DNA of 64,000 bases from Candidatus Binatia bacterium (GTDB lineage Bacteria > Desulfobacterota > Binatia > Bin18). This document shows, one piece after another, positions 169 to 57,500 of this stretch. Location of the stretch: contig CAXXHG010000022.1 in the NCBI GenBank assembly GCA_963666315.2, positions 32,001 through 96,000 of the forward strand. Reading direction: 5' to 3'. The first letter of the stretch is position 1; every line of letters begins with the position of its first letter. Below the pieces are notes generated by a model. The model had not been told where the DNA came from, made no database searches, and saw only the letters and a list, made by a program, of their open reading frames with translations. The position numbers and the translations under genes were made by a program.

Positions 169-202
169 GTTTAAGGGGAACACCGTTTATTGAAAAGAAA
201 GC

Positions 203-242
203 GCGCCCTGGAAGATTCGAACTTCCGACCTACAGATTCGTA
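203..242 (-). repeat. att site: 3' half of tRNA-Arg(ACG), distal end of island A
   Basis: 40 bp (gcgccctggaagattcgaacttccgacctacagattcgta) identical to 46600-46639; identity stops in the anticodon loop. Confidence 0.93.
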
Positions 243-385: not shown

Positions 386-407
386 TTGGCAAACTGTTGG
401 CAAACGA
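386..407. repeat. Putative integrase arm-type site, island A left
   Basis: ttggcaaactgttggcaaacga, identical to 46509-46530. Confidence 0.8.
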
Positions 408-480
408 GACAGCGGACAGTTGACATCTTTCGTACCTCGTCGCTAATCCCTGAGGCCGGTTACGACCTGGTGTTGGGATT

Positions 481-672
481 AGAATCACCCGTGTTCTCTG
501 CGACGGTATCGACGCATACGTCGCACTTTTCACTGCTCATTCTGATGCGCCCAACGCCATAGCCTCAATCGCCACTCTGGTCGCAACTTGAGCGAGCAAC
601 CCAACTCTGGTCATCCCCCTCCTTATTTCCTATAATCCCCGACAACACGTGGGGGGCACATGGACTTTCTTG
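481..672 (+). promoter_or_regulatory. Conserved island leader with TATAAT (631-636) and first codons of an AC gene (ATG 660), truncated
   Basis: Homologous to the reverse complement of 56816-57004 and partly to 3535-3615. Confidence 0.75.
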
Positions 673-816: not shown

Positions 817-875
817 GAATGGCATTCAAGAGGTCGTGAGTTCAATTCTCATCGGCTCCACTCCTTTTCTCCTTA
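817..875 (+). repeat. 3' fragment of tRNA-Ala(GGC) plus 15-bp tail (relic att site)
   Basis: gaatggcattcaagaggtcgtgagttcaattctcatcggctcca: anticodon loop, T arm and acceptor strand, no 5' half; inverted copy at 51701-51759. Confidence 0.8.
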
Positions 876-1137
876 TCTTTCAGTAGCTTCGCAGATTCTC
901 TCTTCACCCCATTTCCGTCCTGAATCGGCTGGTGGCTGTAGTGATGGCTGTTGGTTCGGGAAATACCGCGTAATTGGTCGTACGCAATCATGCTTTTCCC
1001 TCTGTGTTGAGTTGTCCTTCCCTTCATTTGCTGCTCTTATCGCATCATCCGATCACGTCAGGCACATTGTTACTTAGAGAACGATCCATATCGGGAGGCA
1101 ACCCAGGTCTGAGAAGCGTAAGTAGAGAGGAGACGAC

Positions 1138-3086: not shown

Positions 3087-3310
3087 GCACTGTCAAGTTA
3101 TCGGGGTAGAGTACGAAACTCACCTGCTGTGAGGTATGTTAGAGTCCTTTTTACGCAGGCATCCGACCGTTCCGCCAAGAGTTCTTCGACCTCCCGGAAG
3201 CTAAGCGAGAAGCGATAATACAGCCAGACCGCATGACTGATGATCTCCGAGGGAAACCGATGATTTCTATACAGACTTTTCGTACACTTCTCCTGGCAAA
3301 GCTGTGCCAA
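3087..3310 (-). mobile_element. IS6-family remnant (right IR plus N-terminal transposase fragment)
   Basis: gcactgtcaagttatcgggg matches the IS6 end at ~56090-56109; YRNHRFPSEIISHAVWLYYRFSLSFREVEELLAER. Confidence 0.85.
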
Positions 3311-3602
3311 GGTAGAGGGTTTTCCGAACGGACGACATGACGATCTGATCGATGCGACATCAAAGGCGTTCGCGAAACTAACAGGCGGTAACCGGGTTGT
3401 TCAGCGGAAGTTACTCGGGCTATAACGCGCAGACATCCCTATAAGTGCGAATCTGCCCGCCACCGGCCCCTCCCCACGGCCTTGTCCAGCTTCATATGTC
3501 TTGATTCGGCCACTGATCAGTCTCCGCGTGTCGGCGAGCCCAACCCCAACTCTGGTCATCCCCCTCCTTATTTCCTATAATCCGGGCGACAAGCGGGGGT
3601 GC

Positions 3603-4145
3603 ATGGACTTTCTTGAGGTGATCGAGCAAGCGAAAGCAGTGCTGCGGAGCAAGGGGCGGGTGACGTACCGGACGCTCAAGCGGCAGTTCGCGCTGGACGA
3701 CGATGCGCTGGACGACCTCAAAGATGAACTCCTGTTCTCTGACCCACTGATAACAGAGGTGGATGGCCGTGGTTTGGTCTGGAATGGGGCCGACTCAGCG
3801 GTGGACTACCACTTCATTCGCGGAGCAGGCTCGTTTGACCTGGACACGGCTTCGCTGGTTCCCGGACATATGACTGTGCGTGGGATGCGCCAGTGGCTCA
3901 AGAACATCACCAGCCAAGAGACCAGCAAGGGCACGCGCTATACGGTGGACGAGAGCATTGAGAACGGCACCGTCATGCTGGGCAGTCCGGAGAGTGTTGT
4001 GGCCCAGATCAAACGTCAACGTGAAGAGGGCAAACGGGGCACGCTGCTGGCCATGTTTCAGTTTGGGAATCTCGACGGAGAGCTTGCCACCCAAAACCTA
4101 GGGCTGTTTGCCAGTGAAGTATTGCCCAAGATTCGAACGGTCTAA
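3603..4145 (+). pseudogene. Chimeric ORF: AC N-terminal domain (~64 aa) fused to the C-terminal part of an LLM oxidoreductase
   Basis: MDFLEVIEQAKAVLRSKGRVTYRTLKRQF...GRGLVWNG followed by GSPESVVAQI...LFASEVLPKIR. Confidence 0.8.
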
Positions 4146-43671: not shown

Positions 43672-43756
43672 AGAAGGCACCGGGCTTCTTGTTTCTTCCC
43701 CTGCCCCTGCCACAGCCGGGCCAGGCTCGTGGCCGCGCGGAGTTCCCAGGATTTGG
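43672..43756 (-). pseudogene. AC-TPR 3' fragment
   Basis: KSWELRAATSLARLWQGQGKKQEAR. Confidence 0.85.
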
Positions 43757-44994: not shown

Positions 44995-45023
44995 TTGACA
45001 ACATTACCACAGCAGAGTATAAT
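44995..45023 (+). promoter_or_regulatory. Consensus sigma70 promoter
   Basis: TTGACA-17 bp-TATAAT exactly. Confidence 0.85.
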
Positions 45024-45030
45024 GGGCAGA

Positions 45031-45213
45031 ATGGTACAGAAGCGGCCAGCGACGCCACCAAGCAAGAAGTTGATTGTCGATATGCCTGCCGATTTGCATA
45101 GGTCCCTGAAACTCTATGCGGTCCAGAATGACCGGACAATCCGAGAAATCGTCATTGAGGCGATTGAAGCAACCATAAGCGGCAAAAGCCGCACCAAACG
45201 TAAGAAGAGTTAA
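45031..45213 (+). CDS. Small ribbon-helix-helix (ParG/CopG-like) DNA-binding protein
   Basis: KKLIVDMPADLHRSLKLYAVQNDRTIREIVIEAI. Confidence 0.8.
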   Translation: MVQKRPATPPSKKLIVDMPADLHRSLKLYAVQNDRTIREIVIEAIEATISGKSRTKRKKS

Positions 45214-45393
45214 ATCGGGCAGTCAGTGCCCGTGTTGTGAGGTTCATACCTCTCCGTTGAACGACTACTTTCCATCGGTGAGGCTTTTCGTATTGTGCCA
45301 CTTCCGGCCACCAAGGAGCACGGAGAGGAGTGAGTATGGAGAAAGAGGATAACAACCCAGGACGAAATTCTAGGTACAGGAAGGAGTAAGTGT

Positions 45394-46578
45394 ATGGCAC
45401 AAAACGGAACATGGAAGCGGATAGAGCCGCAGCTTTATCGCTTAAAACACCAAACCCCAACTGGCGAATGGACCACCCGCTACTACGCGCGCTTTAAGGA
45501 TTGGAAAGGCGTGAATCGGAAGGTTCCGGCCGGCACTGATCTGCGCGGCGCGAGAACAAAGAAAAAGCTGCTGCTTGGCGAAAATGCGCGCCACGTGGAT
45601 TTCGATACGTAGAAAACCCGCGCCACCACGTTAGCGCAATGGGCTGAGGTCTACCTGGACCGGTATGCTAAGGATAAACGTTCCATTTTAGAAGATCGCC
45701 GCCACGTCCGCGTGCTCATCGAGTTCTTTGGCAATGCGCTCTTATCGCAAATCACAGCGGGGAAGATTAACGACTTCAAGCAAGTCCGGAAAGACCGACT
45801 GACCTAGCGCGGTGATCCCGTCAGTGTCTCATACTGTAACCGGGAACTCGCCTGTCTACGCCACCTCCTGAAACTCGCAGAGGAGAAAGACCTGATCGAC
45901 AAAGCTCCTATGGTTCGTTTGCATCAAGGGGAGAACAGCCGAGATATTGCACTCTCGACTGAGGAGTACCAGCGGATTCTAACGCTTGCTCCGGCGCACC
46001 TTCAACGGATAATGCTCTGCGCCTATGAGACAGGGATGCGCTCTCGGGAAATCGCGGACTTGACCTGGGACAAAGTGGACATGGAGGCTGGCGTTATTCG
46101 TTTAGGAACGGTAGACACCAAGACGAAACACAAGCGTATCATCCCCATCCCCCTACCCTGCGGACTGTGCTTACGGAGATCCGGGCGAGCCAACGCCAGG
46201 GCAAGGTGGCCCCGATCAGCGGACATGTCTTTACCTGGAAGGGAAAAGCGTTCAGCAGGCAGGGCTGGAAGCGGTCGTGGAAAACGGCATGTACCAAAGG
46301 CGGATTAGTAGGACGTACATTTCCATGACCTGCGCCATACCTTTGTGACCCGAAAAGTGCGGGAGGGCTGGGACTACAAGCGGATCATGGCAATAACGGG
46401 CCATAAGACATTCTCTGTTTTCCAACGCTACAACAACCCGTCAGAGGATGACATTAAAGAAGTCGTGTCGGCATCCCGCCCAAAAAGAACGTCGGCAGAG
46501 CACGTTCGTTGGCAAACTGTTGGCAAACGACCTATGAGTCCTTCCACACCCATCCGGCCTATTGCGCTAAGTCTCTGA
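45394..46578 (+). pseudogene. Tyrosine recombinase/integrase of island A (stops at 45610 and 45805; frameshifts ~46150 and ~46305)
   Basis: NRELACLRH, ETGMR, FHDLRH, TGHKT, QRY. Confidence 0.92.
46509..46530. repeat. Putative arm-type site, island A right
   Basis: Identical to 386-407. Confidence 0.8.
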
Positions 46579-46598
46579 ATCAAAAGGGAAAAGAAAAG

Positions 46599-46673
46599 TG
46601 CGCCCTGGAAGATTCGAACTTCCGACCTACAGATTCGTAGTCTGCCGCTCTATCCAGACTGAGCTAAGGGCGC
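46599..46673 (-). tRNA. tRNA-Arg(ACG)
   Basis: gcgcccttagctcagtctggatagagcggcagactACGaatctgtaggtcggaagttcgaatcttccagggcgca folds as a full cloverleaf; CCA not encoded. Confidence 0.96.
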
Positions 46674-46721
46674 GTAATGAAATCAAGTACTTACAGGGGT
46701 TGCCCGATGGCGCTTGATTGC

Positions 46722-46742
46722 GAGTAGAAACAGAGTAGAAAT
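46722..46742. repeat. Putative arm-type site, island B left
   Basis: gagtagaaacagagtagaaat, identical to 57071-57091. Confidence 0.8.
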
Positions 46743-46870
46743 TTTCTGTCCCATAAGTCTCTTCATGGTACAGACTCACACCGAATTCATCAAGCGCGGG
46801 ATCACTGGTGTGAGAGGCGCCAACGCTCTCAAGGAGCCTCAGCGTGCGTCTGCAACTGCTAAACGCGGGG

Positions 46871-49663
46871 TTAGCTTACTTTCCGCCTCGGAGGAGGGCC
46901 TTCAACAACTTCGCGCAGATCATCCTCACTCGGGTTGTTGTATCGCTGAAAAACAGAGAACGTCTTATGGCCCGTGATCGCCATGATCCGCTTGTAGTCC
47001 CAGCCCTCCCGCACTTTTCGGGTCACAAAGGTATGGCGCAGGTCATGGAAATGTACGTCCTCTAACTTTGCCTTTCGGCACGCGGTATTGAACGCCCGCT
47101 TCCAGCCTTCGGTCATGCGTTTTCCGCCCCAGGTGAAGACCTGGCCCCCGATCGGCGCGACCTTGCCTTCCCGCTGCTCTGTGCGAATCCCCTCCAGCAC
47201 TTCCCGGCAGACGGCAGAGATCGGTATCGCCCGCTTATAACTTGTCTTCGTGTCCTCTGTCGCCAGACGAATAAAGCCCGAGGCAAAGTCGACCTTGTCC
47301 CAGGTCAGCTCTTTGATCTCGCCGGACCGCATGCCGGTCTCATAGGTGCAGACGAGAATCCGCCGCAGATGTGCAGGCGCGCACGCAAGTAGGCTCTCGT
47401 ACTCGTCTTCAGACAATGTTCTCTCCCGGGCGTTATCTTCCTGATGGAGTTTCACGATGGGCGCCGAGTCCAAAATACCCTCTTCCGCCGCCAGGCGCAG
47501 GAGATGCCGCAGACAGGCGAGTTCACGATTGCAGTACGCCGCACTTACCGGGTGCCCACGCACTGTCTGACGGGATTTCCTGAGCTGTTTGAATTCCTCC
47601 ACGCGTGATCGGGTAACGCTGGAGAGCAGCACCGGACCGAAGAAGTCGCCGACGCGGTTCTCACTACTTGCAGCGATAACCGCGTCACCCGGGTAATACA
47701 GCACCGACTCTGCCATCAGCGTCATGTCCGTAACCGTCACGGTACCATCTCTGTTCATATCTTTCTGGAGTGGCCAGTCGCGTTGGCCGGTCAGCACCCC
47801 CCACCGGCTCTCCGCTTCTTCGTCGCCCCGGTCCGCAGCTTTGCGATACCATTCTGCCGCTTGCTGTCGATCACGCGGGACGCCGCGTCCGTATTCAGAC
47901 AGCAGTCCGAGGTTATAGTGCGCTTCCACGTTTTCGTGGTACGCGGCCTTGGAAAACCACTGCCTTGCGAGCTGATAATCCTGCGGCACCCCCTGACCAT
48001 GCAAATACATAGTGGCTAAGGAGACCTGTGCATTGACTTGGCCTTGCTCGCCCGCCTTGCGGTACCACGCCGCTGCATCACGGTAGTTCTCGACGACGCC
48101 GTAGCCCGCATAATACGCATCCCCCAGATCCCACTGTGCGTCTGCATGCCCTTGGTCGGCGGCTTTACGGTACCATTTGATTGCTTCGGGATAGTCTTGC
48201 GGGACGCCGTAGGCCTGGAAGTACATCGTGCCGAGTATATATTGCGCTTGTGCGTGTCCTTGGTCTGCCGCTTTGCGGTACCAGTGCACCGCTTCAAGAT
48301 CGTCCGTCTCCGCGATGAGGCCGAGAGAGTACACTTCCCCCAACAAAAACTGGGCCGTTGCCAGACCCTGGTCCGCCGCCTTACGATACCATTTTGCCGC
48401 CGCCACAAAATCTTCCGGCACCCCGAGACCCTCAGAGTATATCCGGCCTAATGAGAACTGCGCCTTGGCATGTCCTTGACCTGCAGCTTTGGCATACCAC
48501 TTGTGTGCTTCTTGAGCACTCTGCGTCACACCGTACCCCCGCCAGTACAGGTAGCCTAGGCTGTACTGCGCTGCAGCATCCCCTCGATCCGCGGCCTTCC
48601 GTGTCCACTTGGCTGCTTCTTCATAATCCTGTGCTACGCCGTGGCCCTCAGCGTAGATTTGGCCCAGAACATATTGGGCCTCGGCGTCGTCCTGGTCTGC
48701 GGCCCTGTGGTACCATTTCTGCGCTTCGGCATGATCCTGCACGACTCGGTAGCCGCTGTGGTACATATCACCCAAGCTGCGTTGCGCCACGACGTAGCCC
48801 TGCTCTGCCGCTTTGCGGTGCCACTGCAGTGACTCTTCGGCGTTCGGCTCGACACCCTGCCCGTCGGCATACATTGCGGCCAATGTGAGCTGCGCTTGGC
48901 CACTCCCTTGATCTGCCGCTTTGCGGTACCACTTCCGCGCTTCCGCGTAATCCTGCTCGACGCCGTGGCCCGCCATGTACAGATTCCCCAGGTTGTATTG
49001 CGCCGTCGCGTTCCCCTGGTCAGCGGCTTTGCGGTACCACCTCTCCGCCGTTTGATAATTCTGCTCGAGGCCTTGGCCGTGGTCGTACAGATAACCCAAG
49101 GCGAGCTGCGCCGTAGCATCGCCTTGGGCGGCGGCTTTACGGTACCACAGCGCGGCTTCCTGGCAATCCTGCGTCACGCCCCGGCCTTTGTCGTAGAGAA
49201 CGCCCAGGTAACTCTGCGCTTCCTTTTCGCCTTGGTCGGCGGCCTTGCGATACCACTTTGCGGCGGTAGGAAAGTCCTGCGGCACGCCGTAACCCAGTTG
49301 GTATAAGTGACCTAGATTGGTCTGCGCCAAGTCCATGCCCTGGGCCGCAGATTTACGGTACCACTTGAGTGCTTCCTGAAAGTCTTGCTCGACGCCTCGG
49401 CCTTCGGCGTGCATGAATCCGACCCAGAACTCCGCATCGGCCTCTCCCTGGTCCGCGGCCTTGCGCCACCAGTGCAGAGCTGCCGCATCGTCTTGCGGAC
49501 CTCTGGTGCCGGCGTAGTGGACATACCCCATCATGACCTGCGCGGAGGCCTCACCCTTGGTGGCCCTCTCCTGAAGGTCTGCGAAACGGTCAGCCAGCGT
49601 CAGAACGGGGCTGAGCAACAATCCACACGTCAGAGACAGTATTCCTGTCTGCCGAATGTTCAT
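46871..49663 (-). CDS. Fusion ORF: signal peptide + 16 Sel1-like repeats + DxNxDG loop + tyrosine recombinase core/catalytic domain
   Basis: 16 WYRKAAxQG-type repeats; ETGMR, TKT, HDLRH, GH and RY intact in the same frame; junction at FFG ~47640. Confidence 0.85.
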   Translation of the reverse strand: MNIRQTGILSLTCGLLLSPVLTLADRFADLQERATKGEASAQVMMGYVHYAGTRGPQDDAAALHWWRKAADQGEADAEFWVGFMHAEGRGVEQDFQEALKWYRKSAAQGMDLAQTNLGHLYQLGYGVPQDFPTAAKWYRKAADQGEKEAQSYLGVLYDKGRGVTQDCQEAALWYRKAAAQGDATAQLALGYLYDHGQGLEQNYQTAERWYRKAADQGNATAQYNLGNLYMAGHGVEQDYAEARKWYRKAADQGSGQAQLTLAAMYADGQGVEPNAEESLQWHRKAAEQGYVVAQRSLGDMYHSGYRVVQDHAEAQKWYHRAADQDDAEAQYVLGQIYAEGHGVAQDYEEAAKWTRKAADRGDAAAQYSLGYLYWRGYGVTQSAQEAHKWYAKAAGQGHAKAQFSLGRIYSEGLGVPEDFVAAAKWYRKAADQGLATAQFLLGEVYSLGLIAETDDLEAVHWYRKAADQGHAQAQYILGTMYFQAYGVPQDYPEAIKWYRKAADQGHADAQWDLGDAYYAGYGVVENYRDAAAWYRKAGEQGQVNAQVSLATMYLHGQGVPQDYQLARQWFSKAAYHENVEAHYNLGLLSEYGRGVPRDRQQAAEWYRKAADRGDEEAESRWGVLTGQRDWPLQKDMNRDGTVTVTDMTLMAESVLYYPGDAVIAASSENRVGDFFGPVLLSSVTRSRVEEFKQLRKSRQTVRGHPVSAAYCNRELACLRHLLRLAAEEGILDSAPIVKLHQEDNARERTLSEDEYESLLACAPAHLRRILVCTYETGMRSGEIKELTWDKVDFASGFIRLATEDTKTSYKRAIPISAVCREVLEGIRTEQREGKVAPIGGQVFTWGGKRMTEGWKRAFNTACRKAKLEDVHFHDLRHTFVTRKVREGWDYKRIMAITGHKTFSVFQRYNNPSEDDLREVVEGPPPRRKVS

Positions 49664-49706
49664 CAGGTTGGCCCGTCTTCCGGAGGCTGCGTATGCTCTG
49701 TGAGAC

Positions 49707-51437
49707 TCAGAGTGGCGCCTCCAACAAAGTTTTGAAAAAACCCTTTGCCGCCTGAATTTCTTTGAGCAGGTCTTGCCGATTATCCAGTAACGTCTCCTTT
49801 GGAATCGCATCAAAATTCGGCATTTCCAACTTCTTAGCCAGATGCTCCATATTATCCTCGGTCAGAACGGTTTCCATATCTTCTAGTCTGGCCAGCCACG
49901 TTGCGGCAATTGTTCTGGATTGGGCGCTTTGCGCAATGCCCGGGCGGTCCTTGAGGCTCACATAGATCGGGGCGGAATGCACAAGACTCGTGGGTTTGAA
50001 GGAACTCCAATATAAAGGAGTCGCCATCGTATTTTCTTTGGGCTTCTCTCCGTAGCCGCGCACGGCGAACCAGGACGCTTCATTCACCAGATGACGAGCG
50101 CTGAATTCGATTCTGTCTGCACCCTTAACCCGGGAAAAGCGCTTGATCACATTACCGTTGTGCACAATTTCAACAATCGACAGATCATCCCTCTCAGGAT
50201 CAAACACCACACGGCCTGTGAGCTGCACCGAAGTGGCCTGCTCAAGTACGATGTCACTGCCTATCTCTTGGCCATTGACCTGAAACTCGACCAGCGGACC
50301 TGTTGTGACAAAGGTGCGGCCTTTGCGCACTCCTTCCAGCCAATTCGCGTAGGTTAATGGACCCTCGACTTTGGTATAAAAGCGCTCATGACCAGGGATG
50401 GTTTGTCCGCCACACGGATAGTCCGTCCCCGCTGTGGGAGTCACTCGGAAACCCAGCCCGAGAACATCGTACCAGGTCTCATAATCACTCCGATTAAATT
50501 GCAACACCTCCACAAAATGCAGCAGATTATGGGGCAGGACCACCGCCATACCATCGTGAGGAGCAACAACAGAACCGTTTGGAAGATAGGCATGGGCAAA
50601 TCCATTGATTGCCCCTTGCTTTACTGTTTCCTGCCACAGCAAACGATAAATGAGATATTTCTCAGGGCTGTGGTGAGCGGTGTCTGCGCCCAGCGTAATC
50701 GTGTGCCCCAGAAAGTGGCTGCGAGGATTTTCCTGGCCGGCTGCCAAGATGTAATCGCCCTCCTGATAATGGCTGTCCGGGCCATGGGCATGCTGCAGGG
50801 CAATGGTGAAATTCTTGACCTTGCCCATTTGCAGCAGGTTGGCCACATGAATGTCTTCGGCCTGCATCATTTTGGAGATATACGGATTCAGCTCTGGGTC
50901 AGGTCTTGGGATATGCAAATGATCATCCGAACTATACCAGCCGTTTTGCGGCAGGTTGCTCCAGCGGGTGAGTTCTATAGTGTGCTGGACCGTTTCTGCG
51001 GCTTTGATCTCTACCGTACCACTACCCACTCTGTATTCGGGACCTTTGAACACTGTGATAGTAGCCGCACCGGTTGGCAGCGGAATCGATGACTTTCCAT
51101 TGCTATAGAACTGGGTAGACTGCGTATACGGATTGTCGAGTCTGTCAGAAAAACCCGCCAGTGTGGACGCCAGGTCCACATACCCCGCGCCTTGATCACT
51201 CATGTCACAATCGCCACCAACCAGCAGCGCGTCCTCGGCAACATGATGCGTCCCATCTGCAGCGTGAATTTCCACTCGTGCAGGGATAGACTCCCCGGTG
51301 ACAGCGTCCGTGATCTTCAGCTGTAAGGTCCCCGTTGGCTCAGTGGCGAAGAGAGGAGTTGAGAACGCACCCAGTACGCACAAGAGCAATGCCACGATTG
51401 AAGGCGTCCGATATGGGAACCATTTCGCTGCGTACAT
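49707..51437 (-). CDS. Secreted CehA/McbA-family (PHP-like) metallohydrolase
   Basis: Signal peptide, GWYSSDDHLH, FAH, AGTD, GRTFVTTGP. Confidence 0.8.
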   Translation of the reverse strand: MYAAKWFPYRTPSIVALLLCVLGAFSTPLFATEPTGTLQLKITDAVTGESIPARVEIHAADGTHHVAEDALLVGGDCDMSDQGAGYVDLASTLAGFSDRLDNPYTQSTQFYSNGKSSIPLPTGAATITVFKGPEYRVGSGTVEIKAAETVQHTIELTRWSNLPQNGWYSSDDHLHIPRPDPELNPYISKMMQAEDIHVANLLQMGKVKNFTIALQHAHGPDSHYQEGDYILAAGQENPRSHFLGHTITLGADTAHHSPEKYLIYRLLWQETVKQGAINGFAHAYLPNGSVVAPHDGMAVVLPHNLLHFVEVLQFNRSDYETWYDVLGLGFRVTPTAGTDYPCGGQTIPGHERFYTKVEGPLTYANWLEGVRKGRTFVTTGPLVEFQVNGQEIGSDIVLEQATSVQLTGRVVFDPERDDLSIVEIVHNGNVIKRFSRVKGADRIEFSARHLVNEASWFAVRGYGEKPKENTMATPLYWSSFKPTSLVHSAPIYVSLKDRPGIAQSAQSRTIAATWLARLEDMETVLTEDNMEHLAKKLEMPNFDAIPKETLLDNRQDLLKEIQAAKGFFKTLLEAPL

Positions 51438-51700
51438 GATCTCCCCCCTTTTGACCGTACTGTGTATCAACTGTCCGCGTAACACGCCAGCAGAAACGTT
51501 GGTTCGTACGTGTCTCTGACTTTATCTAGTTGATCACGCAGGCGCGTGGATGGCGGCGTACCGGACGAAGGACAACTCAACGGAGAGAAGAAAGCGAAGT
51601 TAAATACGGCCACGTACGCTGCCTTTTGATAAACCAACAGCCACCAGCCGATTTAGGACAGAAATGGCCCGAAGGAGGAACTCCCTAAGCCACTGGACTC

Positions 51701-51762
51701 TAAGGAGAAAAGGAGTGGAGCCAATGAGAATTGAACTCACGACCACTTGAATGCCATTCAAG
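51701..51762 (-). repeat. 3' fragment of tRNA-Ala(GGC) plus tail (relic att site)
   Basis: 57/59 identical to 817-875 in inverted orientation; complete anticodon arm cttga-atGGCat-tcaag; no D arm or 5' strand. Confidence 0.8.
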
Positions 51763-51970
51763 TGGCGGCTGCGACACCTGCCTACTCCTGCCTAACAAAC
51801 CCAGTCATTTTAGCGCCCGCCTCGTTTTTTGTTATGCAGTGATTGGTTTACGTAGGCTGCAGTACACTGACAAAAGGCGGACAATGACCGTCTCAGTCGG
51901 ATTGAAGTGAATACGCCTGTACATTGGGCTACGATAATTCCTTTGCCAAAGCTATGCACCGTTGTATACA

Positions 51971-53011
51971 CTATTGGCGGAAATGCGGCATAACCTCTTT
52001 GGCAAACAGTTCCATTGAACGGCGTACCTTTTGCGGATCGAGTCCGGCCATCTGCATCCACATGACCAGGTGGGTCACGCGCGTTTCCTGGCGGTAGCGT
52101 TCGATCTCTTGGATCGCCGCGTCGGGTGTCCCAATGATGAGCGGCGCTTGGAAGAAGGAGAGATCTCGGACATGGCGCATCTCACCAGGCGGGGGGACAC
52201 TCGGTCTGGACATGACCGAAGCACTCCAAGGCAAGTCGTCGGCCTCTTTAAAGCGTCGGTCGTACGAACTCATCATATAGTGCAGATGCGGCTCCACGTC
52301 GTCCCACGCTTTGTCTCGGGTCTCCGCAACATAGACCGCTCGCAGCTGCGCAATATGATAGTCGTCTGGACGCCGACCATGCTGCTGCAATCCAGCGTCA
52401 TACATCCGCTGTAAGTCCGCACCACCACTCCCTCCCAAGTGATAGCCAAGGCGCGCCACTCGGGCCACCGATTTTTCGGCCATCGCCGCAATCCAAATCG
52501 GTGGGTACGGTTTCTGGACCGGCTTCGGAGCTAGCACGACTTCGCGCAGATTGTAGTGCGTGCCGGCAAAGGAGAAGCTGTCTTCCGTAAAACAGCGCCG
52601 GATAATCTCAGTGCCTTCTTCAAGGCGAGAGGCCCGTTCGCGCCGCGGAATGCCAAAACTGGCAAATTCGCTCAGCCAATACCCCTGCCCGATGCCGAGG
52701 TCGAGCCGACCGTCCGAGATGATGTCAACGGTCGCCGCATCTTCTGCCACGCGGACCGGGTTATGCAAAGGCAGGATGATGATATAGGTCCCCAGTCGAA
52801 TGCGACTCGTTTGCATAGCGATAGCGGACAAGATCGGGAAGAGGGACGGCGCCCAAGCATCGTCAGCAAAATGATGCTCAGTCGTCCAGATATGATCGTA
52901 GCCCAACTCCTCCGCCAGGACGGCTTGCTCGATATGGTCCTGGTAGAGCTGCGGAAAAGGCACCGCCCATTGTTTTGGATTCCGAAACGGTAAAAGCAAG
53001 CCAAAATCCAT
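51971..53011 (-). CDS. LLM-class flavin-dependent oxidoreductase
   Basis: IWTTEHHF, PVRVAED, GRLDLGIGQGY; similar to 14775-15788. Confidence 0.92.
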   Translation of the reverse strand: MDFGLLLPFRNPKQWAVPFPQLYQDHIEQAVLAEELGYDHIWTTEHHFADDAWAPSLFPILSAIAMQTSRIRLGTYIIILPLHNPVRVAEDAATVDIISDGRLDLGIGQGYWLSEFASFGIPRRERASRLEEGTEIIRRCFTEDSFSFAGTHYNLREVVLAPKPVQKPYPPIWIAAMAEKSVARVARLGYHLGGSGGADLQRMYDAGLQQHGRRPDDYHIAQLRAVYVAETRDKAWDDVEPHLHYMMSSYDRRFKEADDLPWSASVMSRPSVPPPGEMRHVRDLSFFQAPLIIGTPDAAIQEIERYRQETRVTHLVMWMQMAGLDPQKVRRSMELFAKEVMPHFRQ

Positions 53012-53110
53012 CACGCCCCCTTGTCCCGTCGGCATTCTCACTATCGGAGTCTTGACAACCGGTGTGTACCCAGAGTCAGGCAGCGGTGCTCCGAGGTGAC
53101 AATTGTCTCT

Positions 53111-53286
53111 TCAGCTTAACTGCTCCAATACCGTTTTTGTCTCTTGCAAGTCCGCCGTGTCAAACCCTTCCGTGAACCAATTATAGACCGGCGCGAGAAG
53201 ATCGTGGGCTTCGGTTGTCTTCCCTTGCCCCTGCCACAGCCGGGCCAGGCTCGTGGCGGCGCGCAGTTCCCAGGATTTGGCTTCTG
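53111..53286 (-). pseudogene. AC-TPR 3' end (displaced copy)
   Basis: AKSWELRAATSLARLWQGQGKTTEAHDLLAPVYNWFTEGFDTADLQETKTVLEQLS*. Confidence 0.9.
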
Positions 53287-53297
53287 CAAAGACCGCG

Positions 53298-53738
53298 CTA
53301 CACCCACTCTTCCTCAGTATGGAGGCGGGTCAAGTGGATCTTCTTAAGCTTCCACTGGCCGTCTTCCTTCACATAGTCTTCCTGGTAGTGTCCCCAGCCC
53401 TTAAAGTGGCACGTCGGTAGGCGCACATCGTCGAACATCGACCAGACCCCACGTGCAGTAGTTGCGCTAGTCAGCTCGATTTCCGGCATATACCCCTGAT
53501 GGATCGATTTGGCGCCGGTCATCAGACTCCGGATCCCGTCCACCAGCGCGTCGCGCCCCGTGATCTCGATGTCACGCGGCAGATCCTTGCTCGCCCGTGG
53601 CGCACCCTCGTATAGCGCCGAAACATCAGCAGTAAAACATTCCGGGAAGAGGTCCCACTGCTGCGTGTCCATCAATCGGAAATAGCGCGCTTTGAGTTGC
53701 CGGATGGCTTCCACATCGTTGAGTTGGTCGCCGGTCAT
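53298..53738 (-). CDS. SnoaL/NTF2-like (BaiE/LinA-type) protein
   Basis: EAIRQLKARYFRLMD, PEIEL, GHYQEDYVKEDGQWK. Confidence 0.88.
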   Translation of the reverse strand: MTGDQLNDVEAIRQLKARYFRLMDTQQWDLFPECFTADVSALYEGAPRASKDLPRDIEITGRDALVDGIRSLMTGAKSIHQGYMPEIELTSATTARGVWSMFDDVRLPTCHFKGWGHYQEDYVKEDGQWKLKKIHLTRLHTEEEWV

Positions 53739-53833
53739 GTCTTGCTCCCTTCGGCTGCGTGTTCTTTGGTCTTCCGGCACAGAATACGTAACCACTCCGC
53801 ACCCAACAAGTTATGATATTTTCTGTCCTTGAG

Positions 53834-54265
53834 TCACTCCACCTCCCCATTCTCCATCCAACCCGCATAACTCGGGATCCCCGCCGGTTGATGCACCCAG
53901 CCATGCCGGCGTCTGCCGTAGACGGCCACATTCGGAGCGGGGAATCGGAGGTCTGTAAGGCAGCCCACGGCGACCACGATCTGACCACTCAGGGTAGGCA
54001 AACCTGGGATCACCCAATAGACCGTGGTCCCACAGGTCGGGCAGAAGTGAAACTCAATAACGAACCCTGCCTCGCCCGTGCGCTGATACACGTGTGTTTC
54101 ACCGTCGATCGTGACCTTCGGGCGCTCAAACAGAGCCGCGAGACTATACGTCGTGCCCGTGCGTCGCTGACATAGTTCGCAATGACACATCACCACCTGC
54201 GTAGGGTCTCCTTCACAGCGCACCTGAAGCTGCCCGCAATGACACGCAGCCGTTTGTTGTTTCAT
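53834..54265 (-). CDS. GFA (glutathione-dependent formaldehyde-activating) family protein
   Basis: CHCG, CHCELCQR, FCPTCGT. Confidence 0.9.
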   Translation of the reverse strand: MKQQTAACHCGQLQVRCEGDPTQVVMCHCELCQRRTGTTYSLAALFERPKVTIDGETHVYQRTGEAGFVIEFHFCPTCGTTVYWVIPGLPTLSGQIVVAVGCLTDLRFPAPNVAVYGRRRHGWVHQPAGIPSYAGWMENGEVE

Positions 54266-54339
54266 TCCGTCCTCCTCGTAATCGCTCTAGCGAGAAAGGC
54301 GTATGCTCAGCATCTCCCCGCTGCAAGGATCAACGAGTC

Positions 54340-54729
54340 TTATGCCTCGGCGAGATGGAACCACGGCAGACGTTCCTCTGGAAAATACTGTCTCCTGCTC
54401 GGCTGCAGCCGCGCGGCGTGATCGAACGCCCCGACAGGGAAATGCGTTTCCGTCGGCCCAGGGAGACTTTCGCAAGTCAAAGTGGACCCGCACCGGGGGC
54501 AAAATCCGCGCCGTGTTCTGCCTGGCGTAGAATCGAACTTGGTGATCTCGCCTTTGGTCACGGTATACGCCTCGCAGTCGAATGCCACGAAGACAGAAAC
54601 CGGCGCGCCACTATGCCTGCGACAACTTTGGCAATGACACCAATATACCCCCTTCGGTTCACCCGTTGCGATAAAACGGACCGCCCCGCACAGGCAGCCC
54701 CCTTCAAACTGCTCGGTCGTGCCGCTCAT
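54340..54729 (-). CDS. GFA family protein
   Basis: GGCLCG, CHCQSCR, FCPRCGS. Confidence 0.9.
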   Translation of the reverse strand: MSGTTEQFEGGCLCGAVRFIATGEPKGVYWCHCQSCRRHSGAPVSVFVAFDCEAYTVTKGEITKFDSTPGRTRRGFCPRCGSTLTCESLPGPTETHFPVGAFDHAARLQPSRRQYFPEERLPWFHLAEA

Positions 54730-54908
54730 GATCTGATCCTCCTACCTCGCCTTGGAATCAGTTAGTACGTCGGAAAAAGGCCGTGCCTTCTCCGGCCCCT
54801 AACCGCGCTAATCTATCTTACATATGGGCCTGCCGATAGCAAATAGACAAAGATGAGCGGTAAGCGTTTCTTGGGAGCCCCTGAGCTGGCCTTGGAGCCA
54901 GCAATCAG

Positions 54909-55271
54909 TCATGAGAGTTGGTCGAGCAGCGCCTTCGCGTCTTTCAAATCCGCCGTATCAAAGCCTTCCGTGAACCAATTATAGACCGGCGCGAGAAGAT
55001 CGTGGGCTTCGGTTGTCTTCCCTTGCCCCTGCCACAGCCGGGCCAGGCTCGTGGCGGCGCGCAGTTCCCAGGATTTGGCACTCTGGTGGCGAGCAACTTC
55101 AAGAGCGGTGTGAAAAGCGGCTTCTGATTCCGCATGATTGGCTTGCGACTGCTGGAGCAACAGCTCGCCCTTGAGGCGGTATAGCTCGACTTCGTAGTAA
55201 TGCTCCTCCGTTTCGTGCACTATATCTAGCCCTTCTGTTACTGCCTGCAGCCCTTCCTCACTCCTCCCGAC
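54909..55271 (-). pseudogene. AC-AAA-TPR gene, C-terminal TPR part, cut by IS6
   Basis: ELYRLKGELLL...AKSWELRAATSLARLW...FDTADLKDAKALLDQLS*. Confidence 0.9.
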
Positions 55272-56110
55272 GGTACTGTCAGCTTAACGAGGGGTTTGCC
55301 AACTATTGGTGTCTTATGCCGTGACAAGGGCATGAGTTCCTGTAGTACAAGTCTGTATAGAAGGCACCGGTTTCCGCCCGAAATCACCGCCCACGCGGTC
55401 TGGCTGTATCACCGTTTTAGCCTCAGTTTTCGTGAAGTCGAAGAACTCTTAGCCGAGCGCGGTGTCACCGTGAGCTATGAAGCCGTGCGTCAATGGTGTC
55501 TCAAGTTTGGCCACGCGTTCGCCCAGAAGCTCCGACACCAGCGAGGACGCCCGGGCGATACGTGGTATCTGGACGAGGTATTTATCCGCATCAGGGGCGA
55601 GCGCTACCACCTGTGGCGCGCTGTAGATCAAGATGGCCAGACGCTCGATATTCTCGTGCAGAAACGGCGCAATACCGGAGCGGCCAAGCGCTTCTTTCGG
55701 AAGTTATTGAAGGGTTTACGCTATGTGCCCAACCGCCTCATCACCGATAAACTTCGTAGTTATGGGTCAGCCCACCGAGATATTATGCCGTCGGTGACTC
55801 ACTGCACCACGCAGTACGCCAACAACCAGGCCGAAGTCTCTCATCAACCGACTCGGCAACGCGAACGCCACATGCCCGCTTCAAGTCTCTACGACACGTC
55901 CAACGCTTCCTCTCTGTCCATGGACCGATCAACAACCTCTTTCGAGTCGGTCGCCACCTCATGAAGGCAGTCCACTGTCGGTTGTTCCGAGACAAGGCAT
56001 TTGCAACCTGGCGGGACGTGACCACGGGGCTGGAAGTGGCGTAAGGATGCCCCTCATCTTACCTCACACTACGTGATTTTCGCACTCTGCCCCGATAACT
56101 TGACAGTACG
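55272..56110 (+). mobile_element. IS6-family element; transposase 55332-56044 frameshifted ~55875
   Basis: IRs ggtactgtcagctta / taacttgacagtac; WYLDE, WRAVDQDG, ITDK; no target-site duplication. Confidence 0.92.
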
Positions 56111-56828
56111 AGTGATAAGTATCGGTGCTAATGACCAGGGTGTCTGGTGCTGCTTGGCCTTGCACGCGGGCCGCAATATTCGGTGTCTCTCCCAGGGCCA
56201 ATTGTTCAGTATGTTCGCCACCACCCACTGCGCCAATGACCACGGGGCCGGTGTGCAGACCAATGCGGGCTTGGATCGGCTGAGCCAGCTCAAGTCTCGG
56301 TAAGGCCGCCAGGATGTCCAGCCCGGCTCTGACTCCCCGAATCGCATCGTCTTCATGCGCCGCTGGGTAGCCGAAGTACACCAGGATGCCATCCCCCAGG
56401 TATTGGGCGATATCACCCTCGTAGCGTTCAATGACTTGCCGACACGCGTCTTGATACGTGCCGACTATGGCGTGTAAGTCTTCCGGGTCGAGTTGTTCGG
56501 AGAGTGTCGTTGAGCCCACCACGTCGCAGAACATGACCGTCAGTTGGCGGCGTTCGCCTGCGGAAGTCTCAGGCAGAGCACAAGGTGGTGTTGGGGCCGT
56601 TGTCTCAGCCGGCGGACTTACGCCGTCACCGGAGATGGTATCATCATTCCAGACCAAGACTTTGCCATCTTCATCAACGGCTACGCGCTCGCCTATGATC
56701 AACTCGTCCTTAAGGGTATCCAGCGACTCCTCGTCAAGCTTGAATTACCGCTTCAGGGTCCGGTACGTGACCCGACCCTTGCTCCGCAGCACTGCCTTCG
56801 CTTGCTCGATCACCTCAAGAAAATCCAT
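56111..56828 (-). pseudogene. AC gene 5' part (stop at 56745), cut by IS6
   Basis: MDFLEVIEQAKAVLRSKGRV..., GERRQLTVMFCDVVGST, GDGILVYFGYP, GETPNIAAR. Confidence 0.9.
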
Positions 56829-57004
56829 GTGCCCCGCCTGTCGCGGGGATTATAGGCAACATCGAGGCTGATGAACAGAGTTGCGCTACTCGCTCAAGTT
56901 GCGACCACACTGCCGACTAAGGCTACGCTGTCGCGCACATCAGAATGAGCAGTGAAAAGTGCGCCGCATGCGTCGCAACCGTCACACAAAACACGGGTGA
57001 TTCT
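56829..57004 (-). promoter_or_regulatory. Conserved island leader with TATAAT (56849-56854)
   Basis: Homologous to 481-659. Confidence 0.75.
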
Positions 57005-57070
57005 TATCACGATGTTAAGATGTGGCGTCACCGTGGGACCAAGGGGAGCGGCAAGAAGGAAGGCGTTGTT

Positions 57071-57091
57071 GAGTAGAAACAGAGTAGAAAT
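57071..57091. repeat. Putative arm-type site, island B right
   Basis: Identical to 46722-46742. Confidence 0.8.
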
Positions 57092-57227
57092 ATTTGGTGC
57101 GAAACCAGGTCAAACGAGAGAGATGGGGAACAATAGGAAACGTGGGAGATCACACAGGTATACCAGCGAAGACGCAGGGTCACCGCTAACTAGCTGCTTT
57201 CGATTGAGTTTTACCTTGGGGGCCTTT

Positions 57228-57275
57228 GCGGGTTCGAAGCCCGTTGCTCTATCCAGACTGAGCTAAGGGCGCGTA
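57228..57275 (-). repeat. att site: 5' half of tRNA-Arg with a UCG anticodon arm, no T arm
   Basis: gcgcccttagctcagtctggatagagc-a-acggg-ctTCGaa-cccgc followed by unrelated sequence. Confidence 0.85.
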
Positions 57276-57500
57276 GATGAGAAAAGCGAACGCTGCAAGC
57301 GAGAGGGCTGACCAAAAAGGGTCCGCTAGGGCTTTCGTTATACCACACGCCGCCGGGAGATCGCAACTCGACCCTTTTGTTACCATTTTTTTTTGACAGT
57401 TCTTATTGTGAAACTTCTGTATACGCACCCTGCTTCAGTTACTATACCGGCAAGAGGGAACTTGCCGTCCTAACTACCGTTCTTCCTCTAGGAGGCTGTT

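Follow-up and report, generated by a model that had tools for sequence, protein, structure and literature searches.

The stretch common to the ends of two tRNA-Arg islands is probably the control region and start of a cyclase-STAND gene

The roughly 190 bp that are shared by the distal ends of two related tyrosine-integrase islands in the window (the whole stretch of 64,000 nucleotides analysed here) are probably the 5' control region together with the opening codons of a cyclase-STAND gene (the AC gene), rather than a transfer or packaging signal. The shared stretch consists of two parts, one of approximately 60 nt proximal to the gene and one of approximately 125 nt distal to it, and it does not serve the island family in cis as a site of transfer, packaging or recombination. 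In each island the AC gene is the cargo gene that comes first from the integrase-distal end, and it faces inward; the proximal promoter unit travels with this gene and recurs without the distal block in a third copy in the window (copy C) and in the related genome G009, while the distal 125 nt or so would be upstream DNA co-inherited or co-duplicated with the promoter. The distal block may hold regulator-binding sites, and common descent would suffice to account for the data. As read here the leader matters little, being an ordinary cargo-gene control region common to related islands.

The shared stretch and its two parts

A BLASTN comparison of the window halves aligned 477-672 (+) with 57008-56816 (-) at 81.6% identity over 196 nt (E 1.4e-47), and a repeat search returned the inverted pair 477-641 and 56844-57008 (82% over 165 nt). 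In a global alignment of the two copies, A at the left and B at the right, 37 of the 192 columns are mismatched or gapped. The sequence-only reading had reported a likeness of about 190 bp between 481-672 and the reverse complement of 56816-57004, and this is borne out, the five strings quoted there being present in both copies. Its placement of the leaders also holds, since leader A starts 235 nt inside its att and 71 nt past the arm repeat, leader B 225 nt and 62 nt, respectively, and each leads into an inward-facing AC start (ATG at 660 (+) and at 56828 (-)) that opens a cyclase N-terminal domain. A third, partial leader at 3545-3631, absent from that reading, was detected by nhmmer (E 6.5e-10). 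The elements concerned are the following:

477-600 (+): distal block of leader A; 81-83% identical to 57008-56885 and 78% over 69 nt to G024:C7, a locus in another related genome
601-659 (+): proximal part of leader A; TGGTCA at 608-613, 17-nt spacer, TATAAT at 631-636, G-rich 5'UTR of about 23 nt
660-672 (+): AC start remnant, copy A; only these 13 nt are homologous, and the frame stops after 12 codons
3545-3602 (+): leader copy C, proximal promoter part only, found by nhmmer; 600-638 equals 3545-3583 at 100%
3603-3788 (+): AC N-terminal domain, copy C; 84% identical to 56883-56719
56064-56828 (-): AC gene, copy B; N-terminal and class III cyclase domains, with TAA at 56747-56745 (codon 28)
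56829-56884 (-): proximal part of leader B; TGTTCA at 56877-56872, 17-nt spacer, TATAAT at 56854-56849, 5'UTR
56885-57008 (-): distal block of leader B; 82% over 72 nt to G024:C7

A contig from sequencing run X2, which belongs to another study, bridges 56534-57500 with zero differences, and the context of copy B is therefore not an assembly artefact of this genome alone; runs X6, X3 and the RNA run yielded no cover of the leader, which weighs neither for nor against. The sole metatranscriptome contig spans 56581-56796 only and may derive from DNA. Runs that hold parts of the stretch carry marine, seawater and hydrothermal-vent metagenome labels, with small shares.

The boundary between the two parts is set by copy C, as the likeness of A and B to it begins at about position 600 in an alignment of the 230 nt upstream of the AC N-terminal copies of this genome. 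Judged from its sequence, the proximal part is the AC gene's own sigma-70-type promoter, followed by a short 5'UTR and the ATG, which upstream in-frame stops mark as the true start. A promoter scan gave copy A a score of 10/12, with -35 and -10 hexamers of sigma-70 type separated by a spacer in the 16-18 nt range; copy B has a perfect -10 but matches the -35 at only 3/6 positions and is hence unlisted by the scan, its boxes having been read by eye. All four copies (A, B, C and that of G009) have a perfect TATAAT at a constant distance from the ATG. In the paralogs a looser version is seen, made up of a TCTATC-like element, a TATAAT or TATACAAT box and approximately 22 nt to the ATG, and a TATAAT- or TATACAAT-type box lies 26-33 nt upstream of 11 of the 26 AC starts considered in this genome. 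This promoter layout of the AC paralogs is also found away from islands. In G009 (contig C497) the proximal part is near-identical to that of B while the distal block is missing, and the AC start there is joined directly to what, read by eye, is the apparent C-terminal end of such a gene. The suggestion of a Pc-like promoter therefore survives only trivially, in that the stretch holds the promoter of the AC gene itself; its proximal third is a generic AC-paralog promoter that occurs off islands as well.

The distal block is known in three copies only (A, B and G024:C7), each lying shortly past an island arm on its inner side, with AC remnants downstream. Within this genome BLAST, nhmmer with filters off and block-wise fuzzy matching returned A and B only, and a profile built from the three copies recovered these three alone among 56 genomes of the order. 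The same profile gave five marginal matches (E 0.001-0.008) in 151 genomes of the class; these look like chance, four lying in ORFs and one in an intergenic position beside a tRNA fragment with no AC gene after it. A 29-nt match in genome G072 was rejected as it falls inside a reading frame read as a peptidase gene, as was a 17-nt match on contig C43, which is 5 kb away from another integrase, with no similarity beyond the match. An 18-mer of the block was found at 19 loci in genome contigs, each match extending over 18-22 nt, where about 17 chance matches were estimated; a 19-mer was found at nine loci in metagenome contigs (19-22 nt each), which fall into three unrelated sequence groups; and two words of the block had no match in the viral contigs of IMG/VR. 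Exact-word scans are blind to diverged copies, the G024 copy having neither word intact, and since the BLAST genome searches missed that copy (72 nt, 82%), which was found by local BLAST, their zero counts are weak.

The rate at which the distal block has changed was compared with that of neighbouring silent positions. Between A and B the block differs at 21 of 121 positions (17%), and over the adjoining 27 codons the third positions of B and C differ at 6 of 27 (22%), with no change at the 54 first and second positions; the two rates are indistinguishable (Fisher p 0.58), the yardstick being limited to 27 codons and to copy C in place of the coding part that copy A has lost. Past codon 27 the third-position divergence of B and C jumps to 66% and the protein changes subtype, which places the end of a homology tract there. 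The alignments thus suggest a tract of approximately 290 nt, from 477 to roughly codon 27-44, the non-coding portion of which would have drifted about as fast as silent sites.

It is on this comparison that an alternative reading bears, in which selection maintains the distal 125 nt because they regulate the AC promoter from upstream, for example as an operator or an activator site. The A/B mismatches are somewhat clustered (p 0.09 for the longest run and p 0.02 for the two longest), leaving perfect blocks of 26, 19 and 15 nt; no indel separates the distal block from the -10 in A versus B, so that the spacing to the promoter is fixed; parts of blocks a to c are retained in G024:C7; and long upstream likeness is also seen in other AC paralog pairs, for example C32_35904 versus C39_125477 (77% over 191 nt). 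Against this, the divergence of the block equals that of the adjacent third codon positions, copies C and G009 have the promoter without the block, the 26-nt block carries five changes in G024, and the genome holds no further occurrence of any of the perfect A/B blocks. With three copies, two of which are truncated, comparative power is low, and we regard a selected regulatory region as unlikely, albeit with a claim to be taken seriously.

Two islands at one tRNA gene and their homologous ends

The islands are arranged in mirror orientation around a tRNA-Arg(ACG) gene that is the target common to both, island 1 extending over 193-46639 and island 2 over 46634-57275. Their recombination modules comprise the following features:

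193-242 (-): island 1 distal att, a displaced piece of tRNA-Arg(ACG) that begins in the anticodon loop and includes the 3' end; 94% identical to 46590-46639 and 100% to tRNA positions 35-74
388-405 (+): island 1 distal arm, GGCAAAC twice with a TGTT spacer; exact second copy at 46511-46528, also present in G009:C55
45396-46490 (+): island 1 integrase pseudogene, with two in-frame stops and frameshifts
46511-46528 (+): island 1 integrase-side arm repeat, the exact copy of 388-405
46598-46673 (-): intact tRNA-Arg(ACG) (ARAGORN; Rfam 68.3 bits)
46722-46739 (-): island 2 integrase-side arm, TCTACTC twice with a TGTT spacer; also found by tRNA-Arg(TCG) on contig C15
46871-47620 (-): island 2 integrase catalytic part, N-terminus lost; fused in frame to a Sel1-repeat ORF that runs up to 49813
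57071-57088 (-): island 2 distal arm repeat, kept in G024:C27 and G024:C7
57233-57275 (-): island 2 distal att, a displaced 5' part of tRNA-Arg; 88% identical to 46634-46676

Both displaced tDNA fragments have the correct orientation and lie on the correct side, the 3' part downstream in island 1 and the 5' part upstream in island 2. The fragment at 57233-57275 is a hybrid, its first 25 nt or so being of ACG type and its anticodon stem-loop of TCG type. Each type of arm repeat gave two matches where none was expected by chance, and an arm scaffold of ATT, 7-mer, TGTT and 7-mer is common to the islands (385-405 and 46508-46528; 57071-57091 and 46719-46739), with different 7-mers in each. The related integrases differ in which half of a tRNA-Arg gene they use; read in reverse complement, the anticodon loop of Arg(ACG) is TTCGTAG, similar to the sense-strand loop of Arg(TCG), CTTCGAA, in which the palindrome TTCGAA is contained, and from the sequences this likeness could permit an orientation flip.

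Pfam Phage_integrase was matched at 45910-46308 and within 46871-49813, which places a tyrosine integrase at the end of each island, both of them defective. With their integrases and AC genes broken, both islands are defective. The minus-strand ORF 46871-49813 (980 aa) combines about 15 Sel1 repeats (14 copies with a 108-nt period at the DNA level) with the integrase catalytic domain. The two integrases share 71% nucleotide identity over 685 nt, and as the leaders are 82% identical, either constraint or a more recent exchange is needed to explain the excess; we favour exchange over constraint.

The claim that the islands carry no transfer, replication or capsid genes agrees with a Pfam scan of 62 ORFs, among which no such domain was found. 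The cargo is mostly oxidoreductases and hydrolases. That of island 1 (1138-44818) includes Rieske ring-hydroxylating oxygenases, family III CoA-transferases, an HpaB-type hydroxylase, amidohydrolases and cupins, and seven luciferase-like monooxygenase ORFs were counted in the window. Just upstream of the island 1 integrase pseudogene, ORF 45020-45214 (+) resembles a ribbon-helix-helix protein by eye only and might be a candidate excision factor or antitoxin.

Many displaced 5' halves of tRNA genes are present in this genome (among them C24:113159-113202, C37:33760-33795, C39:106071-106114, C43:386281-386321 and C5:80139-80181, besides 57233-57275), and tRNA-Ser(TGA), Leu(CAA), Arg(CCT), Arg(TCG) and SeC have integrase genes or fragments directly upstream that face their 5' ends. 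It would seem that a whole set of islands here inserts at the 5' half of tRNA genes, a kind of island that is already known.

Homologous island ends were located in relatives. In G024:C27 the right flank of island 2 has a syntenic counterpart (86% over 4.2 kb), which also has a tRNA 5' fragment and the same arm, and homology to the window stops approximately 8 nt past the arm, where other cargo follows (NAD-binding, MFS, sigma-54 activator); this syntenic locus is an occupied island end with different cargo, and no empty site was found. At G009:C55 an island-1-type att and arm are kept at 87% and homology ends 3 nt past the arm, and at G009:C536 a weaker island-2-type end has neither leader nor AC gene within 1.5 kb. 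At G024:C7, a 5' fragment of the tRNA-Arg(TCG) type stands together with this arm (87% to 57064-57275), and about 105 nt past the arm come the first 72 nt of the distal block, 82% identical to B and 78% to A; a cyclase-domain remnant comes next, the promoter and N-terminal domain being deleted.

The leader module is accordingly present at three of six homologous distal ends (A, B and G024:C7), and the three ends without it keep att and arm at 84-87%. The proposed backbone of att, arm, leader and AC gene describes the order in both islands and recurs in G024:C7, yet it is not family-wide. Searching for the leader across genomes, as had been proposed, gave an equally divided answer on its co-occurrence with att and integrase, with the module carried by G024:C7 but missing from half of the ends and from other islands of the integrase family in this genome. 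The full leader precedes two of 26 AC starts, not most of them, and in that strict sense its association with islands, as first read, stands. Based on these findings, we conclude that the leader module is a recurrent but dispensable feature of a small island lineage (A, B and G024:C7).

The AC gene family and the origin of copy B

A full-length paralog on contig C5 of about 1130 aa consists of an N-terminal region of approximately 62 aa, a class III cyclase domain, AAA_16 and TPR, an architecture identical to that of class III cyclase-STAND ATPase-TPR proteins (Pfam Guanylate_cyc, AAA_16, TPR). The island copies match the N-terminal and cyclase parts of this paralog but are broken, as the AC gene is in all three copies of the window. 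The frame of copy B ends at 56064, inside an IS6-family element end held in common with 3089-3136. That of copy C continues to 4145, Pfam finding no family in ORF 3501-4145, and by eye the tail of copy C appears similar to a luciferase-like monooxygenase in its C-terminal part. As mosaics, B and C have the promoter and first 27 codons in common but fall into different subtypes downstream. PADLOC returned Pycsar cyclase matches (best E 6e-15), which are limited to the cyclase domain and do not establish the AC gene as a defence system.

The AC N-terminal domain has 27 matches genome-wide, 26 starts being used in the promoter and upstream counts. Nine of the 27 matches have frames of about 100 aa or less, several others are below 270 aa, and some copies stand in tandem, directly behind the C-terminal motif of another copy. 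Repeats at 53121-53281, 54919-55079 and 43682-43756 (91% identity) resemble on their minus strand, as read by eye, the conserved C-terminal end of the AC/AAA/TPR proteins and probably remain from full-length genes that were deleted. A 3' fragment of tRNA-Ala(GGC) with approximately 200 nt of downstream sequence occurs four times (817-1020 (+), 51567-51759 (-), C19:51799-52100 and C32:19075-19320), the C19 and C32 repeats leading to a second AC subfamily, which starts with GTG and has a conserved upstream motif of its own; the feature called 'tRNA-???' by ARAGORN at 51715-51802 is a fragment of this tRNA-Ala(GGC). In all, a tRNA fragment is found no more than 450 nt away from four of the 26 AC starts.

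The history of copy B can be followed on contig C15, which carries tRNA-Arg(TCG), a related integrase (59% identical) and the TCTACTC arm on the 5' side of the tRNA. Approximately 16 kb from that locus, C15:135936-137156 is 98.9% identical to 55331-56546, comprising the IS6 element and the cyclase domain of copy B, and the sequence that it adjoins is syntenic with the left flank of G024:C7. In the window an IS6-family transposase gene (DDE_Tnp_IS240) at 55296-55964 (+) adjoins the truncated AC gene of island 2, with the element end at 56060-56107, and a remnant of the same element end lies behind another broken AC gene at 3089-3286. The arrangement suggests that fragment, arm, leader and AC segment formerly ended a tRNA-Arg(TCG) island, as they do in G024. 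From the 98.9% copy on C15, the synteny with the G024:C7 flank and the hybrid att fragment, we infer that copy B was probably moved beside tRNA-Arg(ACG) from the C15 tRNA-Arg(TCG) locus by a recent IS6-associated or homologous rearrangement.

Further readings of the distal block and likeness to known systems

A low probability attaches to the distal block being a cis-regulatory site that links cyclase-STAND expression to the state of the island, whereby an island-encoded factor could bind the block, or the rejoined attP of an excised circle could be read through, with integrase and AC gene co-oriented. Were this so, the AC gene would be a conserved 'end gene' of a lineage that enters tRNA-Arg in either orientation, the latter since TTCGAA is read on either strand of the tRNA-Arg(UCG) anticodon loop.

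A slight chance is given to the block acting as an extended attP arm that binds integrase, an excision factor or a bending protein. Its position, 62-105 nt inside the arm repeats in all three copies, is what such a site would lead one to expect. However, the two islands have the block in common while differing in arm 7-mers and in the tRNA half used, its distance from the arm varies by 40 nt (71 nt in A, 62 nt in B and about 105 nt in G024:C7), no arm 7-mer lies within it, and the ends that lack it retain their att and arm. AC sequence, on the other hand, follows the distal block in three of three copies.

The options of an oriT or of a packaging signal for a helper element, both raised from the sequence alone, are barely credible. 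Islands without transfer, replication or capsid genes would need a helper for any mobility beyond excision, and copy A contains a 7-bp inverted repeat; yet the stem is not found in B and DNA-fold z-scores range from -1.0 to +0.3, giving no conserved inverted repeat, while the block is missing at three of the six homologous ends and its two words have no counterpart in IMG/VR. In the genome, which is 92% complete, Relaxase PF03432, MobA_MobL PF03389 and coupling protein PF02534 gave zero matches where control genomes were positive, and HK97 capsid PF05065 gave none either, so that this proposal was left unsupported.

That the block codes for a small protein, or for a structured or small RNA, is equally hard to credit: RNAalifold places an 8-bp central hairpin with one-sided changes across the three copies, but A and B fold differently (fold z-scores -1.1 to +0.7), no promoter-like site stands upstream or on the opposite strand, candidate mini-ORFs vary mostly or only non-synonymously in our own reading of the aligned copies, and tblastx found no related coding sequence. 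The covariation analysis that had been put forward for the structured-RNA option spoke against it, with compensatory pairs at 1 of 33 and a penalising covariation term of +2.46, from three sequences and hence with low power. A search of Rfam 15 with E up to 1 placed nothing within the leaders, returning tRNA- and tmRNA-like fragments nearby only.

The control region and start of the AC gene, then, is the reading to which we hold, and it illustrates that a conserved non-coding stretch at island ends can be the mere promoter and upstream DNA of a common cargo gene. Homologous island ends in relatives, at which homology ends a few bases past the arm, separate the recombination module from the cargo. 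The genomic context is perhaps more useful than the leader itself, comprising as it does islands in the 5' half of tRNA genes and a pair of integrases that use opposite tRNA-Arg halves with the same arm scaffold.

In the lambda-type attP, integrase is bound at arm-type sites. The islands resemble it in having paired short direct repeats on both sides of the core, at 40-150 nt, whereas the leader lies beyond the arm sites and is common to islands whose arm 7-mers differ. As with the integron Pc, a promoter near a recombination site reads into the cargo; here, in contrast, that promoter belongs to one gene family and is also found off islands, and the integrases stand beside tRNA genes. The oriT of mobilisable islands offers the likeness of a conserved non-coding stretch near the end of an element without transfer genes, from which the present case differs by the lack of a conserved hairpin, the absence of matches to the relaxase and coupling-protein families searched, and dispensability in half of the ends. 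There is also a correspondence in overall layout to the tRNA islands of Islander, as set out in the excerpt of that paper considered here (PMC4383910): each island is bounded by the intact tRNA gene and a displaced fragment in the same orientation, a gene of the Phage_integrase family adjoins the tRNA, and the cargo is metabolic. The filter described in that excerpt accepts tDNA in both the 3'-part and the 5'-part configuration (PMC4383910). Unlike the islands of that excerpt (PMC4383910), two islands share one tRNA gene in the present case, one through its 3' half and the other through its 5' half, their integrases are defective, and they have in common 190 bp that lie outside the recombination module.
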